From: Candidatus Multivoradales bacterium
Lineage (GTDB): Bacteria > Acidobacteriota > Thermoanaerobaculia > Multivoradales > Multivoraceae
DNA: 64,000 bases
Direction of reading: 5' to 3'
NCBI GenBank assembly: GCA_965223325.1
Contig: CBDCWI010000002.1
Coordinates: 2,752,001-2,816,000 of the forward strand
Shown here piece by piece: positions 30,273 through 54,719 of this stretch; position 1 is the first letter of the stretch; each line of letters begins with the position of its first letter. Below the pieces are notes generated by a model. That model had not been told where the DNA came from. It searched no databases and saw only the letters and a program-made list of their open reading frames with translations. The position numbers were made by a program, and so were the translations under genes.

Positions 30273-30887
30273 CTACTTTTCCGGCGGACCGACCCACGGA
30301 CAAGGAGCGCGGTGCGCGTCGAGCCGGGTGACCTCCTGCCAGGTCTTGCCGCCGTCCTGGGAGTTCTCTTCGACCCGATACCAGAAGTCGTCGGACTCGA
30401 CGACGAAGGTCATGCGGCGTTTGTCCGAGGTATCGGGGTGGCTTGCCCACATATGCATCAAGCCGTCTTCGCGCACCTCTGAAGTCAGCGTGCGCACCTC
30501 GGGAACCATGGTGTGCTGCCACATGTTGAGCCACTGCCCTTCTTGTGGGTGGTACATGCGGAGATTCACGCCTCCGCTCTGAGCGGCCGCACCATCGGTT
30601 GGCGGCCGGTCGTACCAGTAGTCCGCAATCGCGTAGCCCCCGAGCGCCCAGCGACCCTCCCAGTACGCCGGCTGGAACCGCTTGCTCCAGGTTCCGTCGG
30701 CGAGTTTTCGCCGTGCCTTGATGTCCCAGTTGCCTACCATGAAGGCGAACTGCTCGAGCTCGGAGTGGGCTTCTGGATGTCTCGACCCCATCTCGCAAGG
30801 CTGGAGAGCGACGGGTTCTGAGATCGCTGGATTCTGGGGAACGAGTGCGACGAGAAGAACGAGGGGTGCGATGCGAATGGCAAGCAT
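30273..30887 (-). CDS. Secreted hypothetical protein (DUF1579-like beta-barrel)
   Basis: Signal peptide, QFAFMVGNW, SQDGGKTW; AGGAG RBS. Confidence 0.65.
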   Translation of the reverse strand: MLAIRIAPLVLLVALVPQNPAISEPVALQPCEMGSRHPEAHSELEQFAFMVGNWDIKARRKLADGTWSKRFQPAYWEGRWALGGYAIADYWYDRPPTDGAAAQSGGVNLRMYHPQEGQWLNMWQHTMVPEVRTLTSEVREDGLMHMWASHPDTSDKRRMTFVVESDDFWYRVEENSQDGGKTWQEVTRLDAHRAPCPWVGPPEK

Positions 30888-46313: not shown

Positions 46314-47519
46314 TCAGTCGAAGCAGCTTCCTTCTTCGGCGTAGAGCGGACCGTCATAGTGACCACGCGGTCGCATCAAGCGGCCTCGCTCGAGCTGCTC
46401 GATGGCGTGCGCAGTCCAGCCGGCTGAACGAGCGATGGCGAAGGTGGCGGTGAAGAGCTCCTTGGGCAGGCCAATCGCGTGCAGAAGAACGGCGGTTCCG
46501 AACTCGACGTTGGCGGCCAGGCGGAGGTGCGGCTTGCGCTCCCGAAGGATCCGCACCGCACACTCCTCGACCGAACGCGCCGTTTGCACGACTCGGGCCG
46601 CATGACTGGCGCCGTCGGACTGCGACATGAGGAGCGCCGTAGCCGCCGCCAGCACCTCGGCGCGCGGGTCGCGTACCCGGTAGACCCGATGACCGAACCC
46701 CATCAGGCGCTCGCCGGCGTCGAGGCGATGTTCAATCCAGGTTTGTGGGTCGCCGCTGTCTGCGATCTCCCGAATCATGTCGAGAACCGGGCCCGGTGCA
46801 CCACCATGCAGCGGTCCCTTGAGCGCACCGATCGCGCCGACCAGCGCCGACACCAGATCCGAATGGGTCGAAATCACCACGCGCGCGGCGAAAGTCGATG
46901 CATTCATGCCGTGGTCGACGACCGTGTTCAGGTAGGTCTCGAGTGCCCGCACTCGTTCGGAGGCCGGCTCCTCGCCGGTCAACATGTAGAGGTAGTTCGC
47001 CGCGTGTCCGAGGTCGGAACGCGGTGCGACGATCTCCTCGCCACGGGCGGCGCGCCCGCCAGCTGCGACGAGGGTTGGGAAGACAGCCAGGAGCGGCAGG
47101 GCGGCAGCGCGCGCCACCTCTGCCGGTGACGCACCTTCTTGTTCCTGGCTCAGGCCGAGATCTCGGGACACGCTCAGGCTGGCGACACCCATTCGCAAGA
47201 GCTCCATCGTTCCAACACCGCGGGCCGCCGCGCTCTCGATCAACGCCAGGGTGGGGGCAGGCACCGCGCGCCAGCTGGCCATCGTCCGGGTCCAGGCAGC
47301 GAGTTCGGCATCGGTCGCGTGTCGACCTTCGAGAAACAGAAAGACCACCTGTTCGAAGGAGTACTCCGGGGCCAGGGTGCCGACCGGGTAGCCGGCGAGA
47401 ATCAGTTCACCGAGCTCGCCGTTGACGCGGCTCAAGCGGGTTTCAGCTGCCACCACCCCTTCGAGACCAGGTTTGTAGTCGGAACCGGGGGTGGCTGCAT
47501 CTGCGGTGGTCGGCGGCAT
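46314..47519 (-). CDS. Citrate synthase / methylcitrate synthase family enzyme
   Basis: GLEGVVAAET, DHGMNASTF, GPLHGGA, GFGHRVY...DPRA, NVEF (Glu at the usual catalytic Asp). Confidence 0.9.
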   Translation of the reverse strand: MPPTTADAATPGSDYKPGLEGVVAAETRLSRVNGELGELILAGYPVGTLAPEYSFEQVVFLFLEGRHATDAELAAWTRTMASWRAVPAPTLALIESAAARGVGTMELLRMGVASLSVSRDLGLSQEQEGASPAEVARAAALPLLAVFPTLVAAGGRAARGEEIVAPRSDLGHAANYLYMLTGEEPASERVRALETYLNTVVDHGMNASTFAARVVISTHSDLVSALVGAIGALKGPLHGGAPGPVLDMIREIADSGDPQTWIEHRLDAGERLMGFGHRVYRVRDPRAEVLAAATALLMSQSDGASHAARVVQTARSVEECAVRILRERKPHLRLAANVEFGTAVLLHAIGLPKELFTATFAIARSAGWTAHAIEQLERGRLMRPRGHYDGPLYAEEGSCFD

Positions 47520-47577
47520 GGTGGGCTCCTCTTGGTTCTCGATTGCTCTCACTATTGTCGGGAGCCAGAAGGCCGAA

Positions 47578-47601
47578 ATCAATCTTGATCAATCAATCAA
47601 T
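47578..47601. promoter_or_regulatory. Candidate operator with ATCAA/TTGAT repeats
   Basis: atcaatcttgatcaatcaatcaat in the gap between the divergent citrate-synthase-family genes. Confidence 0.6.
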
Positions 47602-47644
47602 GTATCCTTGGAGTCGCGTCGATCGCCCGAAGAGAGGAGCGACC

Positions 47645-49027
47645 ATGGCTACCCGAAAGACTCCCAGCAAAAGCAACACACCGGACGCTGCCCGGGGAAG
47701 TGCTCGCGCAAATGCCCATGGAGCCACGCGAAGGTCGTCGTCCTCGCGGCTCCTGACCTCCCGCGAGGCCGCCAGCCGGCTGGGGATTCAGCCCGCCACC
47801 CTCTACGCCTACGTCAGCCGTGGTCTCCTGCGCTCGCGACCTGGCGACTCACCCCGCAGCAGGCTCTATGCGCGCGAAGACATCGAAGCGCTCGAGCGTC
47901 AGCGCTCGATGTCACGCACGCCGGCCGAGGCGGCACAGGCAGCACTCGACTGGGGGGCACCGGTCCTCGACTCATCGATCGCCCTGATCGATGACGGCAA
48001 GCTCTACTACCGCGGCGAACCTGTCGAACGCCTGGCGGTAGAGCGCAACTTCGAGGAGGTCACCGCCCTGCTCTGGGGGTTGCCGTTCGACGCCGCTGCC
48101 AGTCTCTTCCCGAGGCGGGTTCCCGCGCTCGCACCCGCGATGCGAAAGGTCCTCGCGCCGCTTGCCGCGGGTCATCCCAGCGACGCCATGTGCGTGCTCC
48201 TGCGCCACCTCCTGCACGAAGACATTGGCGCAGCCAGCCGCTCCGCCGATGCCAACCGTCGCAGCGCCGCGTTCTTGATCGTACGGCTGATCAGTCACGC
48301 GGCAGGCCTCGAGAAGTCGAGCGACGGGGGCCTGGCTGGAGCGCTTGCACGAGGCTGGGGAAACGTTGAACCAAGAGCGCATCGCCGGACGGCCGGCGCA
48401 ACCGACGACCAGCACCAGGCTCTCACGGAGCTTCTCAATTCGATTCTGATCGTGTGCGCCGATCATGAGTTCAACGTTTCGACCTTCACCGCACGCTGCG
48501 TCGCCTCAGCCGGCGCCACGCCCTACGACATCGTCAACGCCGGCCTGTGCGCCTTGCGCGGTCGCCGCCACGGCGGACACGCCGATCGCGTCGAGGCCAT
48601 GCTCTCCGAGGTCGGCATCGGAAGCGCAGAACAGCCCGTCGATCGCGATCGACTCGAACGCCTGTTGACCGCTCGACTGCAACGGGGCGAACGCCTTCCC
48701 GGCTTTGCACACCCGCTCTATCCTCAAGGAGACCCGCGCTTCTCGCTGGTGATGGACCGTCTAGCGCGGGCACGTCCCAACGCTCCGGGCGTCGAGGCAC
48801 TCTTTCATCTCGCCGAGCTGGCCGAAGACCTGGTGGGCGAAAAACCAACCGTCGACCTCGGCCTGGCCGCCGTGTCGACGACGATAGGGCGCGCCCCCGG
48901 AGGGGCATTCACCCTGTTTGCCCTCGGTCGAATCGCCGGCTGGATCGCGCACGCCCTCGAAGAAGCCGAGCGTGGCCGCTTGATCAGGCCCCGCGCTCGC
49001 TACATCGGCAAGCTGCCCACCGGTTGA
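47645..49027 (+). CDS. HTH (excisionase/MerR-like) - citrate synthase fusion protein
   Basis: LTSREAASRLGIQPATLYAYVSRGLL, then ADHEFNVSTF, HGG, GFAHPLYPQGDPR, TVDLGL, LIRPRARY. Confidence 0.88.
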   Translation: MATRKTPSKSNTPDAARGSARANAHGATRRSSSSRLLTSREAASRLGIQPATLYAYVSRGLLRSRPGDSPRSRLYAREDIEALERQRSMSRTPAEAAQAALDWGAPVLDSSIALIDDGKLYYRGEPVERLAVERNFEEVTALLWGLPFDAAASLFPRRVPALAPAMRKVLAPLAAGHPSDAMCVLLRHLLHEDIGAASRSADANRRSAAFLIVRLISHAAGLEKSSDGGLAGALARGWGNVEPRAHRRTAGATDDQHQALTELLNSILIVCADHEFNVSTFTARCVASAGATPYDIVNAGLCALRGRRHGGHADRVEAMLSEVGIGSAEQPVDRDRLERLLTARLQRGERLPGFAHPLYPQGDPRFSLVMDRLARARPNAPGVEALFHLAELAEDLVGEKPTVDLGLAAVSTTIGRAPGGAFTLFALGRIAGWIAHALEEAERGRLIRPRARYIGKLPTG

Positions 49028-49057: not shown

Positions 49058-50152
49058 TCAACTGGCGTTGCGCCGACGCTTGCGCCTTCCTGAACCCTCG
49101 ACGCCGCGCAGGAACTCGAGCAGGCAACGGTCGAGCCACTCGATCTCCATCAGAAAGGCATCGTGCCCATGCGGCGCCTCGATGATCTCGAACTGCACCT
49201 GCGGCAGCGCCTCGGCCAGTTCCTCCTGATCGCCGAGGACGTAGAGCTGGTCGGAGCGCACTCCGACGACGAGAGCCGGGCTGTCGAGCTCGGCGGCGAC
49301 TTCTTGCCACGGTCGATCGCGACCGCGGCCGAGGTCGTGACTGTCCATCGCTTCGGTGAGGCGAATGTAGGTATTGGCATCAAAGCGCTGAACCAGCTTG
49401 CTGCCCTGGTAGCGCAGGTAGTTCTCGACTTCGAAGGCGGTCTCTAGAGCTTCGGTGGTGCGCACTTGTCGAGCAAACCTCTCGGTGAAGCTCTCCTGGC
49501 TGCGGTAGCTGATCAGTGCCATGGCCCGCGCCGCCGCCAGACCGTGGCGCGGCCCCGAACCGAGGCGGTAGAAGCCGCCACTCCAGTTGCGATCCGCCCG
49601 AATGGCCTGGCGCTGCGCCTCGCTTATACCGATGCACCAGGCCGAGTGAGCCCCCGAAGTGCAAACCGGCGCGATCGCCTGCACCCGCTCAGGAAACATT
49701 GCCGCCCACTCGAGCACCTGCATGCCTCCCATCGACCCACCGACTATCAGGCGCAAGCGCTCGACGCCGAGCGCCTCGAGCAGGCGCGCCTGGACGGTGA
49801 CCATGTCGCGAATCGTGACCTGCGGGAAGTCGGCGCCCCAGTGAACGCCGCTCCCCGGCCGCAGCGTGGTGGGACCCGTAGTGCCGTAGCAACCCGCAAG
49901 CACATTGCTCGCAATGACGTAGTTGTCGGCCGGGTCACACACCCCTCCGGGCCGGAAGAGCGTCTCCCACCAGTCGTCGGCATCGGCTGATCCGGTGAGC
50001 GCATGGCAGACAAGAATGGCTTCGCTCTCTGGAGTACCCCAGGTGCGATAGGCGACATCGATGCCGCGCAGCACTTCTCCACTCTCGAGACGAATTGGCG
50101 CCTCGAGCGTCTGGATCTGGGTCTCCGGGGAGACCAGGGAGCGATAGATCAT
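49058..50152 (-). CDS. metX: Homoserine O-acetyl/succinyltransferase (MetX family)
   Basis: CHALTG, TIRDMV, GGSMGG nucleophile, RFDAN, HGHDAFL. Confidence 0.94.
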   Translation of the reverse strand: MIYRSLVSPETQIQTLEAPIRLESGEVLRGIDVAYRTWGTPESEAILVCHALTGSADADDWWETLFRPGGVCDPADNYVIASNVLAGCYGTTGPTTLRPGSGVHWGADFPQVTIRDMVTVQARLLEALGVERLRLIVGGSMGGMQVLEWAAMFPERVQAIAPVCTSGAHSAWCIGISEAQRQAIRADRNWSGGFYRLGSGPRHGLAAARAMALISYRSQESFTERFARQVRTTEALETAFEVENYLRYQGSKLVQRFDANTYIRLTEAMDSHDLGRGRDRPWQEVAAELDSPALVVGVRSDQLYVLGDQEELAEALPQVQFEIIEAPHGHDAFLMEIEWLDRCLLEFLRGVEGSGRRKRRRNAS

Positions 50153-50178: not shown

Positions 50179-51528
<1,350 letters not shown>

Positions 51529-51571
51529 TTACCTCTGCAACTTCGTCTCGAGTCTTCAAACGCGCAATACG

Positions 51572-51608
51572 CAACAAACCCGCCACGACGAAGTCGCCGA
51601 GGCGGGTT
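51572..51608 (-). terminator. Attenuator-type terminator hairpin upstream of metY
   Basis: Minus strand AACCCGCC-TCGGCGACTTCGTCGT-GGCGGGTT then TGTTG; internal CGAC(TTC)GTCG hairpin; weak U-tract. Confidence 0.65.
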
Positions 51609-51641
51609 AGGTTCAATCGTTTCCTGGACTCTTCGAAAACG

Positions 51642-51782
51642 TCAGGGAAGCTTTCGCCTCCACCCCGCCTGGCTCATCGACGCGCAACACATGCAGCTGA
51701 CGGCGACCGGCATGCACCGGTGACGCTCGTCCCAGGAGGCCACAGGTGCCTTGGCGATGGAAGTTGAGTTTGTGCGGATCAT
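51642..51782 (-). CDS. Putative Cys/Met-rich leader peptide of the metY-metX operon (46 aa)
   Basis: Own translation: MIRTNSTSIAKAPVASWDERHRCMPVAVSCMCCASMSQAGWRRKLP*; 4 Cys + 3 Met within codons 23-36. Confidence 0.7.
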   Translation of the reverse strand: MIRTNSTSIAKAPVASWDERHRCMPVAVSCMCCASMSQAGWRRKLP

Positions 51783-51796
51783 GATGCGGGCTCAGG

Positions 51797-51805
51797 AGCC
51801 TAGCA
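51797..51805 (-). promoter_or_regulatory. Candidate extended -10 promoter (TGcTAGGCT) for leader-metY-metX
   Basis: TG-n-TAGGCT, 14 nt upstream of the leader ATG. Confidence 0.4.
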
Positions 51806-51950
51806 GAATCTTGCCTGTGGGGTGCGACAAGCGCTCGAATCTCGTGATTGCCAGAGATCGAGCCCTCATCGGAACCATGGCCGTCCCTATGCGTACAGCG
51901 GGTTTAGAATCCGGGCAACAAGCTGACTGAACATCTCCCAGGAGTTCCCA

Positions 51951-54719
51951 ATGAACGCCACCTTCTCGCGCACGGCTACCGCTCTGGCGACCAACCTGCT
52001 TCTCTCTGTTTTCCTCGTCTCGAGCCTCGGCACCACGCCCGCACTGGCCGCAGATAGCGCACTCGAGATCCCGTTCGAGAAGTTCGTTCTCGACAACGGC
52101 CTCACCCTCATCGTCCATGAAGACAAAAAGGCTCCGATCGTTGCCGTCAACGTCTGGTACCACGTGGGCTCGAAGGACGAAAAGCCTGGCAAGACCGGTT
52201 TTGCGCATCTGTTCGAGCATCTGATGTTCAACGGCAGCGAGAACTTCGACGACGACTACTTCAAGGCGATCGAGAAGGTCGGCGCTACCGATCTCAACGG
52301 CACCACCAACGCCGATCGCACCAACTACTTCCAGAACGTCCCCAAGACCGCTCTCGACACGGCACTGTGGCTCGAGTCCGACCGCATGGGGCACCTGAAA
52401 GGCGCCATCACCCAGGAGCGGCTCGATGAGCAGCGCGGCGTCGTCCAGAACGAGAAGCGGCAGGGAGAGAACCAGCCCTACGGCAAGGTGTTCACGGCGC
52501 TCGGTGAGAACTCCTACCCCGAGGGCCACCCCTACTCGTGGCCGACGATCGGCTCCATGGAAGACCTCAATGCCGCCAGCCTCGAGGACGTTCACGACTG
52601 GTTCGACAGCAAGTACGGCGCCGCCAATGCGGTCCTGGTAATTGCCGGTGACGTAGACGCGCAGGCGGTCAAGGCAATGGTCGAGCGCTACTTCGGTGAC
52701 ATTGATTCCGGCCCACCGCTACCGAAGAAGAAGGCATGGATTGCCAAGCGTTCGGGCGAGAAACGCGTCGTCATGCAGGATCGGGTTCCGCAGGCCCGGG
52801 TGTACCAGGTGTGGAACATTCCCGGCTGGGGTACCGAGGCCCTCGACACCCTCGACATCGCCTCGACGATTCTCTCCAACGGCAAGACCGCTCGGCTCTA
52901 CCGTCGGCTGGTCTACGAAGACCAGATCGCCACCGACGCCGGTGCCTTCGTTCTGCCGCGTGAACTCGGCGGCCTGTTCATCGTCCAGGCCAGCGTAGTG
53001 CCCGGTGGCAACGTCGCCGCGGTCGAGAAGGCACTCTCCGAAGAGCTGCAGAACTTTCTCGAAGAAGGACCCAACCCCGACGAGCTCGAAAGCGCCCTGA
53101 CCGTGACCCGCGCTGGCTTCATTCGCGGTGCGGAACGGATTGGCGGCTTCGGCGGCAAGTCCGACATCCTGGCAGCGAGCGAAGTCTACGGCGGTTCACC
53201 CGACGCCTACCTCGAGACCATGGCCTGGCAGGACCAGCTCGATGCCACGACCATTCGCGAGACCATGCGCGAGTGGCTCTCGGACGGCAAGCTGACGCTC
53301 GAGGTGCTGCCGTTCCCGGAATACAACACCAAGACGACCGATGTCGATCGCAGCACCCTCCCGGTGCCCGACACCTTCCCGGTCGGTGACTTCCCCAATG
53401 CCGAGCGCACCAGGCTCTCCAACGGTCTCGAGGTGGTGTTCGTCGAACGCCGCGCTGTGCCGGTCGTCAACATGCGGCTGTTGGTCGACGCAGGCTACGT
53501 TGCCGATCACAACGGCAAGTCGGGCGTTGCCAGCCTCGCCATGGACATGCTCGATGAGGGCACCACCACCCGCACCGCGCTCGAGATCTCCGAGGAAATC
53601 TCGAAACTCGGCGCGCGCCTCGGTGCCGGCTCGAACCTCGACACCAGCACCGTCACCCTTTCGACGCTCGCCGAGAACCTCGACGCATCGCTCGAGATCT
53701 TCGCCGACGTCATCCTCAACCCGAGTTTCGATGACGGGGAGCTCGAGCGGCGCCGGGCCCAACGGCTCGCCGGAATCCAACGCGAGAAGGCGCAACCCAC
53801 GCAGATGGCCCTGCGCGTGCTGCCAAAGCTGCTCTACGGCGGGGACCACCCCTATGGCATGCCGTTCACTGGAACCGGCACCGAGGGTGACGTGCAGAGC
53901 ATCGAGCGGTCCGACCTGGCTGGCTTTCACCAGACCTGGTTCCGGCCCAACAACGCACGCCTCCTCGTCGTCGGAGCAACCAGCCTCGATGAAATCACCA
54001 CGAAACTCGAAGCAGCCTTCCGGAGTTGGAAACCAGGCGACGTGCCAACAAAGAGGATTCCGGAAGTCGAACTCGCCAAGGGCCAGAAGATCTACCTCAT
54101 CGACAAGCCCGGCGCTGAACAGTCGATCATCTTCGCTGCCCACGTCATGCCGCCCAAGGCCAACGACGACGAGACCGCGCTGCAAGCAATGAACGACGTT
54201 CTTGGTGGCAGTTTCACCGCGCGCATCAACATGAACCTGCGCGAAGACAAGCACTGGTCGTACGGAGCGCGTTCGATGGTCATCGATGCCCGTGCCCAGC
54301 GCCCCTTCTTCGTGATGGCACCAGTCCAGACAGACAAGACCAAAGAGTCGCTCGAAGAAGTGATCTCGGAAGTCACCGGACTGGTGGGAGAGAATCCGGC
54401 AACCGAAGACGAGCTGGCGCGGGTCAAGGACCAGAACACCCTGACTCTCCCCGGTCGCTGGGAGACCTCCAACGCCATCCTCGGTGACCTCGCTGAGATC
54501 GAGACCTTCGACCTGCCGGAAGACTGGTGGTCGACCTACGGCGACCGCGTCAAAGGACTCGACCTCGATCAGGTCCGAGGCGCGGCAGAAAAGTACCTCC
54601 ATCCCGACAACATCGTCTGGGTGGTCGTCGGCGACCGGAGCGTTGTCGAGGAAGGCCTACGCGATCTGGGAGTCGGCGACATCGTGGCACTCGACCCCGA
54701 CGGCAACCTGGTTGAGTAG
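51951..54719 (+). CDS. M16B zinc metallopeptidase (pitrilysin family), secreted
   Basis: Signal peptide, LDNGL, GFAHLFEHLMF (HXXEH), NGTTN.DRTNY, NLREDKHWSYG. Confidence 0.95.
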   Translation: MNATFSRTATALATNLLLSVFLVSSLGTTPALAADSALEIPFEKFVLDNGLTLIVHEDKKAPIVAVNVWYHVGSKDEKPGKTGFAHLFEHLMFNGSENFDDDYFKAIEKVGATDLNGTTNADRTNYFQNVPKTALDTALWLESDRMGHLKGAITQERLDEQRGVVQNEKRQGENQPYGKVFTALGENSYPEGHPYSWPTIGSMEDLNAASLEDVHDWFDSKYGAANAVLVIAGDVDAQAVKAMVERYFGDIDSGPPLPKKKAWIAKRSGEKRVVMQDRVPQARVYQVWNIPGWGTEALDTLDIASTILSNGKTARLYRRLVYEDQIATDAGAFVLPRELGGLFIVQASVVPGGNVAAVEKALSEELQNFLEEGPNPDELESALTVTRAGFIRGAERIGGFGGKSDILAASEVYGGSPDAYLETMAWQDQLDATTIRETMREWLSDGKLTLEVLPFPEYNTKTTDVDRSTLPVPDTFPVGDFPNAERTRLSNGLEVVFVERRAVPVVNMRLLVDAGYVADHNGKSGVASLAMDMLDEGTTTRTALEISEEISKLGARLGAGSNLDTSTVTLSTLAENLDASLEIFADVILNPSFDDGELERRRAQRLAGIQREKAQPTQMALRVLPKLLYGGDHPYGMPFTGTGTEGDVQSIERSDLAGFHQTWFRPNNARLLVVGATSLDEITTKLEAAFRSWKPGDVPTKRIPEVELAKGQKIYLIDKPGAEQSIIFAAHVMPPKANDDETALQAMNDVLGGSFTARINMNLREDKHWSYGARSMVIDARAQRPFFVMAPVQTDKTKESLEEVISEVTGLVGENPATEDELARVKDQNTLTLPGRWETSNAILGDLAEIETFDLPEDWWSTYGDRVKGLDLDQVRGAAEKYLHPDNIVWVVVGDRSVVEEGLRDLGVGDIVALDPDGNLVE

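Follow-up and report, generated by a model that had tools for sequence, protein, structure and literature searches.

The metY–metX operon analyzed here lies on the minus strand of a 64,000-nucleotide (nt) stretch of DNA from a Candidatus Multivoradales bacterium (contig CBDCWI010000002.1, positions 2,752,001–2,816,000). The whole stretch is referred to as the window and has a G+C content of 64%. The upstream neighbour of metY is a divergent M16-type peptidase gene, which starts at position 51951 on the plus strand. The 455-nt divergent intergenic region between the two genes (51496–51950) contains all of the leader features, which comprise a short open reading frame (sORF) rich in cysteine (Cys) and methionine (Met) codons, a predicted terminator and a competing RNA structure. 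Given this divergent position, the predicted terminator has no upstream gene on the same strand to terminate. The features are as follows.

49058–50152, minus strand: metX, homoserine O-acetyltransferase, second operon gene (NF001209, 378 bits, cut-off 331)
50179–51495, minus strand: metY, O-acetylhomoserine sulfhydrylase, first regulated gene (TIGR01326, E = 2e-208, 692 bits, cut-off 495)
51496–51572, minus strand: spacer from the terminator to metY, with GGAG before the ATG (from the sequence)
51573–51608, minus strand: predicted intrinsic terminator, with 5' arm AACCCGCC and inner stem, 3' arm GGCGGGUU and U tract UUUGUU (from folding)
51618–51641, minus strand: inner hairpin 2 of the predicted three-way junction, CGUUUUC...GGAAACG (from minimum-free-energy folds)
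51642–51782, minus strand: leader sORF of 46 codons plus TGA, with an ATG start and the translation MIRTNSTSIAKAPVASWDERHRCMPVAVSCMCCASMSQAGWRRKLP*
51646–51661, minus strand: inner hairpin 1 of the junction, GGAGGC-GAAA-GCUUCC, covering the last sORF codons and ending two bases before the TGA
51663–51680, minus strand: predicted antiterminator 5' strand (segment 2), UCGAUGAGCCAGGCGGGG, which includes GGCGGGGT (51669–51662; from the nascent-RNA fold)
51675–51716, minus strand: regulatory codon cluster CMPVAVSCMCCASM, codons 23–36, with four Cys and three Met (from the sequence)

The original prediction described a Met/Cys-sensing leader peptide in a 46-codon reading frame, and this frame is present at 51782–51642 with its four Cys and three Met codons in 14. 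The ATG is the first start codon, as an in-frame TGA is located four codons earlier, and the stop codon occupies 51644–51642. The encoded peptide holds five Cys residues, and both TGC and TGT are used for Cys in the cluster. The rarity of the cluster was counted over all stop-free 14-codon windows in the six frames of the 64-kb stretch (n = 101,089). Seven Cys/Met codons are observed in just one of these windows, namely the leader cluster. Six are observed in eight windows, four of which overlap the leader cluster as shifted copies. The second-richest place (TMVCCHMLSHCPSC, 30505–30546, plus strand, 6 of 14) is antisense within a 204-residue open reading frame and was rejected as a chance occurrence. 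The N terminus of that 204-residue frame resembles a signal peptide.

A GC-rich hairpin had been proposed about 80 nt before metY, and it is found there. The outer stem is formed by pairing of AACCCGCC (51608–51601) with GGCGGGTT (51584–51577), and the T-rich tail (TGTT) ends at 51573, 78 nt ahead of the metY ATG (51495). The predicted terminator has a folding energy of −23.6 kcal/mol (z −4.73), and none of 200 dinucleotide shuffles is as good. The complete window RNA folds into this terminator. The inner stem and loop of the hairpin (GGCGACUUCGUC, 51597–51586) are also complementary to GACGAAGUUGC in the spacer before metY (~51548–51538, minus strand). This pairing came to light via a spurious Rfam match to mir-49 (E = 1.1) and is possible only in read-through transcripts; the minimum-free-energy fold keeps the terminator.

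Before the terminator 3' arm is made, the nascent RNA (51680–51586) is predicted to adopt a different structure. It folds into a three-way junction of −39.2 kcal/mol (z −3.09), and again none of 200 shuffles is as good. In this nascent-RNA fold, segment 2 (51680–51663) pairs with the region of the terminator 5' arm (51606–51586), with base pairs connecting 51679–51664 to 51606–51586. When the 3' arm is left out, segment 2 pairs with 10 of the 19 bases of the 5' arm, and the same pairing persists when a ribosomal footprint at 51704–51674 is forced to be unpaired. An 8-nt antiterminator, GGCGGGGT, had been suggested at 51669–51662. The competing pairing stands, but its extent does not, as the strand is ~16–18 nt long (51680–51663). 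The GGAGGC-GAAA-GCTTCC hairpin noticed before the stop codon is located at 51661–51646 and is now seen as an inner arm of the three-way-junction antiterminator. Inner hairpin 1 has an energy of −9.3 kcal/mol, and 2 of 200 shuffles are as good. No counterpart was seen in the leaders of loci L002, L004 and L027 introduced below, so its role is uncertain.

Known RNA families do not account for the leader. At the Rfam gathering thresholds, the 64-kb window yields just two tRNAs (tRNA-Glu and tRNA-Lys, as assigned by ARAGORN) and no S-adenosylmethionine (SAM) riboswitch or T-box. At the permissive threshold of E ≤ 10, positions 51400–52050 give no SAM riboswitch (SAM-I, II, III, IV, V, VI or SAM/SAH), T-box or leader family and just two irrelevant weak matches, mir-49 and TLS-PK6 (E = 5.3). 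A SAM riboswitch, the presence of which would have spoken against the original prediction, is therefore not detected over the leader.

The regions upstream of metY in other genomes were surveyed for comparable leaders. A scan of species-representative genomes with the MetY protein matched 596 stretches, of which 564 encode relatives. The best 80 were kept (64–78% identity) and are designated by L-numbers (L001, L002 and so on). They represent distant lineages, and their leaders are analogous rather than orthologous leaders of close relatives. metX directly follows metY in 56 of the 80 loci, and synteny with the window is limited to metX. Closed sORFs of 8–91 codons were collected from the 500 nt upstream of metY, and each was scored by its best 14-codon window for Cys plus Met codons, start codon excluded. 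On the forward strand, 37, 27 and 21 loci contain at least five, six and seven Cys/Met codons, respectively, compared with 1, 0 and 0 loci on the reverse complement. Twenty rounds of dinucleotide shuffling gave means of 1.05, 0.15 and 0 (maxima 3, 1 and 0), and the best of eight other three-codon sets gave 12, 4 and 1 loci. Enrichment of Cys/Met sORFs before metY, which the original prediction had put forward as a check, is thus observed, in this case across distant lineages.

The codon content of the clusters is mixed. The 37 clusters total 187 Cys codons (70 TGC and 117 TGT) and 72 Met codons. TGC and TGT occur together in 31 of them, and an internal Met is present in 34. When windows were chosen by Cys alone (at least three Cys in 12 codons), 49 of 81 leaders were selected, the window included. 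Met is the commonest non-Cys residue in these Cys-chosen windows, at 12.7% compared with 3.0% over the remainder of these sORFs (ratio 4.3, Fisher p = 3e-11). Because the 80 loci share ancestry, the p values imply more independence than there is. The carriers, identified from the titles of the sequence records, include many Bacteroidota, metagenome-assembled genomes (MAGs) of Gammaproteobacteria (L002 and L004), Gemmatimonadetes (L027) and Calditrichota (L051), and members of the Acidimicrobiia (L005 and L008) and Balneolaceae (L036). Species of Niabella, Terrimonas, Pontibacter, Thermonema and Parapedobacter are represented in the set of loci.

The count of 37 has errors on both sides. The L025 sORF, which is 373 nt from metY and 5' of a riboswitch, is probably a false positive. 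Several sub-threshold loci have shorter CC(C)M(P) clusters. In one of these, L001 (MetY identity of 77%, among the closest to the window), a strong hairpin with TTTGCGTT comes after a small ACICMP sORF, which indicates that the threshold of five undercounts. A SAM-I riboswitch (RF00162) is located upstream of metY in 50 of the 80 loci and accompanies a Cys/Met sORF in 26. Neither a SAM-I match nor an sORF with at least five Cys/Met codons is found in 19 loci (e.g. L001, L003, L006, L007, L019 and L034).

The survey bears on whether the sORF and its cluster could be a chance occurrence in GC-rich DNA beside a non-regulatory hairpin. Short open reading frames are abundant at the G+C content of the window, and the whole 351-nt leader does not fold unusually (z −0.45) and lends no support to a regulatory structure. 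However, the cluster is the single richest of the 101,089 windows and lies directly upstream of a sulfur amino-acid gene, comparable sORFs precede metY in 37 of 80 loci against an expectation of ~1, and the terminator and the antiterminator each surpass all 200 of their shuffles. Chance is thus a very unlikely explanation. A further alternative is that the sORF encodes a functional small Cys-rich peptide, metal- or redox-active or the precursor of a modified peptide, that is co-transcribed with metY. Small Cys-rich peptides exist, and the leader peptide has five Cys. However, the 46-residue peptide has no homologue among proteins of 25–81 residues in a 5.8-billion-cluster search, and no modifying enzymes are encoded nearby. 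What recurs across the loci is the Cys/Met cluster and where it stands with respect to the hairpins, not the peptide sequence. We regard this explanation as the least probable of all those considered.

Ten leaders (the window, L002, L004, L027, L008, L005, L051, L036, L042 and L073) form a class in which a terminator follows the sORF. The nine loci share the order of parts found in the window, which is best seen in L002, L004, L027 and L051. The Cys/Met cluster is followed by a stretch inside the sORF that resembles the terminator 3' arm, then by the stop codon, a spacer and a GC-rich hairpin with a U run. The 5' arm sequences are lineage-specific and contain, for example, ACCCGCA in L002 and L004, CCCCCGCGCCGG in L027, GCCCTTCCGG in L051 and AACCCGCC in the window. 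The region after the cluster nevertheless matches its own terminator arm better than the arms of other loci (0.60 vs 0.44 of the perfect-duplex energy; p = 5e-5, 20,000 permutations over the ten leaders). The copy of the 3' arm starts 0–15 nt past the cluster in the window, L002, L004, L027, L008 and L051. In per-locus shuffle tests of this pairing, p is 0.005–0.05 in the window, L002, L004, L027 and L051 and 0.10 in L008. Minimum-free-energy folds of the nascent RNA give the antiterminator in the window, L002, L004 and L027, and those of the complete RNA give the terminator in nine of the ten leaders, L005 being the exception. The consensus terminator scan fully calls the L027 and L051 terminators and partially calls that of L004 (inner stem and U tract); the main L002 terminator is not called. 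Sigma-70-like promoters (TTGACA-17-GATAAT or CATAAT, 11 of 12 matches) are located at L002:2195–2231 and L004:2175–2211. Their −10 elements end 7 nt before the sORF ATG, and the sORFs of these two loci are therefore probably leaderless. A second terminator-like hairpin (CCGGTATGACCGG then TTTTTT) lies at L002:2445–2467, between the first terminator and metY.

Taken together, these observations make it likely that the metY–metX leader is a ribosome-mediated transcription attenuator that senses the charging of Cys-tRNA and Met-tRNA. The attenuator interpretation of the original prediction gains comparative support, as the leader has no SAM-riboswitch match and Cys/Met sORFs are enriched before metY. 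In the proposed mechanism, transcription would begin upstream of 51782, and the 46-codon leader would be translated. Under replete conditions, charged Cys-tRNA and elongator Met-tRNA would allow the ribosome to clear codons 23–36 and reach the stop codon at 51644–51642. There, the ribosome would occupy inner hairpin 1 and sit on or next to segment 2 while the polymerase makes 51608–51573. With the junction blocked, the local terminator (51608–51577 plus the U tract) would form, and transcription would stop at ~51573, 78 nt before metY. When Cys or Met is scarce, the ribosome would stall in the cluster, most usefully at Cys30–Cys33, with segment 2 exposed just 3' of it. With Cys32 or Cys33 in the A site and a footprint of the size that we assume, the leading edge would be at ~51672, leaving GCCAGGCGGG free. 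Segment 2 could then capture the 5' arm (51606–51586) before the 3' arm exists and thereby permit read-through into metY–metX.

Several observations weigh against this attenuator reading. At the level of the window, neither a Shine-Dalgarno sequence nor a sigma-70-like promoter was found for the sORF by sequence inspection and a consensus scan. The simple consensus terminator scan does not call the window hairpin, which has a 1×1 internal loop in its stem and an imperfect U tract (UUUGUUG). The antiterminator pairing is modest when taken alone: the bare duplex of segment 2 and the 5' arm has an energy of −26.3 kcal/mol with 19 of 500 shuffles as good, and p is 0.02 in the per-locus shuffle test. 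A candidate anti-antiterminator (1:2 hairpin, 51716–51664) has an energy of −16.7 kcal/mol (z +1.6), and 193 of 200 shuffles are as good. With no supported 1:2 hairpin, an untranslated leader would default to read-through; such a hairpin is a feature of the trp paradigm and is not obligatory for all attenuators. A ribosome at the stop codon would presumably reach ~51660, which is beside segment 2 and not over it, and a thermodynamic fold with the stop-codon footprint still yields the antiterminator. Termination under replete conditions therefore rests on steric and kinetic arguments.

Similar points arise from the comparison with other genomes, in addition to the relatedness of the 80 loci. 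The best MetY identity among the related loci is 78%, and thus no close relative is included. When the 455-nt leader is compared with the 80 loci by blastn (word size 7), the best E value is 2.0, and nhmmer searches with the L002, L004 and L027 leaders, singly and as a profile, find nothing at the window leader. Consequently, a shared architecture can be claimed, but homology cannot. A MAFFT alignment of seven leaders has a mean column identity of 51% with misaligned arms, which is too poor for column-wise covariation, and per-locus duplex tests were therefore used instead. In those tests, p is 0.32–0.61 for L005, L042 and L073, which are weak members of the class. The window ranks third of ten for pairing with its own arm, because the L004 and L027 arms are similar.

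The lack of start signals for the window sORF also favours control without translation, in which an undescribed metabolite-binding RNA or an RNA-binding protein would act on the three-way junction, with the sORF being incidental. The antiterminator does form a good three-way junction that contains a loop of the GNRA type, as might suit such a role. However, the junction includes the terminator 5' arm, and a stabilizing ligand would turn the operon on, the opposite of what an end product should do. The codon-level signal over the 80 loci (frame, strand, both Cys codons and Met co-enrichment) is left unexplained by an element made of RNA only, and no Rfam family matches. We consider this alternative improbable.

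The imperfect U tract and the missed call in the consensus scan raise a different question, which concerns the output rather than the sensor. The same Cys/Met sORF could act through Rho, with termination in the 147 nt of untranslated RNA that follow the stop codon, or it could control translation initiation at metY. By the criteria used, a terminator-like hairpin is absent in 17 of the 37 loci with Cys/Met sORFs. Precedents for both features are found in the available text of two sources: one describes actinobacterial Cys leaders that lack terminators (PMC1262725), and the other a translational mechanism for mycobacterial polycysteine sORFs (10.1101/834739). However, the window has a GC-rich hairpin with UUUGUU that none of 200 shuffles equals, and the competing antiterminator sits where it is expected. 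Pairing of the cluster with the metY ribosome-binding region (51520–51486) is at the level of chance (−19.4 kcal/mol, shuffle mean −19.0, 219 of 500 as good). The hairpin ends at least 70 nt from the metY GGAG, which makes direct sequestration impossible. An output of this kind is unlikely for the window, although it is the strongest competitor of transcription attenuation.

Attenuation by leader peptides is established for the enterobacterial trpL, hisL, thrL, leuL, ilvL and pheL leaders, and methionine biosynthesis is controlled, according to textbooks, by SAM riboswitches, T-boxes, MetJ and MetR. Like the classical attenuators, the window leader has a short open reading frame rich in codons for pathway products, an intrinsic terminator ahead of the first structural gene and an antiterminator strand that closely follows the regulatory codons and competes for the 5' arm. 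Unlike them, it mixes the codons of two amino acids, Cys and Met, and its target is the direct-sulfhydrylation Met pathway (metY–metX). It also lacks a significant 1:2 pause or anti-antiterminator hairpin and an Rfam leader match, and its stop codon is ~19 nt past segment 2 and not within reach. The classical mechanism is summarized in the available part of 10.1101/834739. The same text describes leaderless polycysteine sORFs of mycobacteria that sense Cys-tRNA charging and control sulfur-metabolism genes. This system acts on translation, through base pairing between the Cys tract and the Shine-Dalgarno region of the gene that follows. The window shares the upstream Cys-codon sORF with the mycobacterial system, and the L002 and L004 sORFs suggest a leaderless arrangement as well. 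As far as that text describes them, the mycobacterial sORFs differ in having consecutive Cys codons only, whereas Cys is interleaved with Met in the window, and in their phylum and target genes. Moreover, the cluster of the window pairs with the ribosome-binding region at the chance level, and an intrinsic terminator is present.

Other Cys leaders have been proposed. Candidates precede cys operons in Mycobacterium and Propionibacterium and cbs in Bifidobacterium, according to the available text of PMC1262725. These candidates resemble the window in that they are short open reading frames that precede sulfur amino-acid genes and carry runs of Cys codons close to the stop. They differ in that the available text reports no terminators and does not mention Met codons; for the methionine operons of Actinobacteria, it states that no conserved upstream RNA regulatory structure was found. 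In the available part of PMC8632094, the uORFC-8-2 motif before cysS in Rhodobacterales is described as an upstream open reading frame (uORF) with Cys codons, two stems and a terminator with a U run, for which attenuation is proposed. The Cys-codon uORF, the terminator and ribosome-mediated attenuation are features in common with the window. The motif, as described there, differs in having two tandem Cys codons only, a tRNA synthetase gene as the target and a distribution limited to one alphaproteobacterial order. In the relatives, metY is usually regulated at the RNA level by the SAM-I riboswitch, which acts on the same gene through premature termination. It senses SAM directly and not tRNA charging, and its presence in 26 loci with a Cys/Met sORF shows accompaniment rather than replacement. 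For metE of M. tuberculosis, the available text of PMC11260477 reports a B12 element in which a riboswitch is combined with a uORF, and the available text of PMC2965389 contains nothing on metY.

The original prediction knew of no characterized sensor with both Cys and Met codons. In agreement, none turned up in the full-text literature searched, and neither did a Cys/Met or Met leader peptide for metY, with the qualification that this literature mostly leaves out subscription journals and that the supplementary motif tables of PMC8632094 and 10.1101/834739 could list one. The mechanism itself is already a known kind; the new elements are the combined set of Cys and Met codons, the metY–metX target and the breadth of the distribution.

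The locus comparison also suggests a wider reading. The window may be a member of a widespread class of mixed Cys/Met leader peptides that control metY, which would include attenuation by Met and two-input forms gated by SAM-I riboswitches. We advance this combined reading tentatively and rate it somewhat below even. Judged by the titles of the sequence records, the class would span five or more groups at the level of the phylum (Gammaproteobacteria, Gemmatimonadetes, Acidimicrobiia, Calditrichota, Bacteroidota and Balneolaceae). To our knowledge, methionine is not among the classical attenuator examples, and in Met attenuation the leader peptide would need the sensed amino acid for its own initiation too. 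In many Bacteroidota, the combination of SAM-I and an sORF may respond to two inputs, SAM and the charging of tRNA.

SAM-I riboswitches and Cys/Met sORFs are observed in different arrangements. In 16 Bacteroidota loci (L017, L035, L040, L043, L048, L049, L056, L057, L058, L060, L066, L067, L068, L069, L075 and L076), the sORF ATG is located 1–14 nt past the 3' end of the SAM-I aptamer with no terminator between them. With the ATG adjoining the aptamer in this way, SAM-I may control whether the leader peptide is translated. A Cys run closes the sORF in these loci, e.g. ACCCCMCCCCMCC then stop. The Cys run pairs better than shuffles (at most 10 of 200 as good) with the upstream sORF, the downstream spacer and the metY start in only 1, 2 and 0 of the 16 loci, respectively. 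The order is reversed in a Balneolaceae MAG (L036:1634–1990), in which a Cys/Met sORF (MKKSDRHIFTVSCCMMCICCLT) with its own terminator precedes the SAM-I aptamer (1797–1923) and a second terminator, so that two attenuators stand in series before metY. In Chitinophagaceae-type loci (L018, L023 and L024; also L030, L046, L062 and L078), a SAM-I riboswitch with its own terminator is followed by a separate Cys sORF that ends in ...CCMP. No clear terminator was found after these Cys sORFs. The last ATG-CCN codons are part of a small hairpin, ATGCC-loop-GGCAT, and the CMP ending thus seems to be set by RNA structure.

If the attenuator reading is correct, metY control would include a fourth RNA-level strategy, which would explain regulation in lineages without a SAM riboswitch before metY. 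The mixed codon set would suggest that one leader integrates two tRNA charging states, both of which report sulfur supply. The 37 of 80 loci, often beside a SAM-I aptamer, would suggest that many regulatory uORFs go unannotated in Bacteroidota and other phyla, and the arrangements of riboswitch and leader peptide would be natural two-input devices to study or reuse. In annotation, Cys/Met leader sORFs should then not be called ordinary protein genes.

Elsewhere, the window carries an outer-membrane efflux gene. Two divergent reading frames of the citrate-synthase family are located beyond metX, at 46314–47582 (minus strand) and 47543–49027 (plus strand), and their predicted 5' ends overlap by 40 nt. 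The 422-residue protein reaches one NCBIfam cut-off (NF009005, 335.7 bits vs 332). The 494-residue protein has a weak match (E = 4e-41, far under the cut-offs) that covers its C-terminal 350 residues only.

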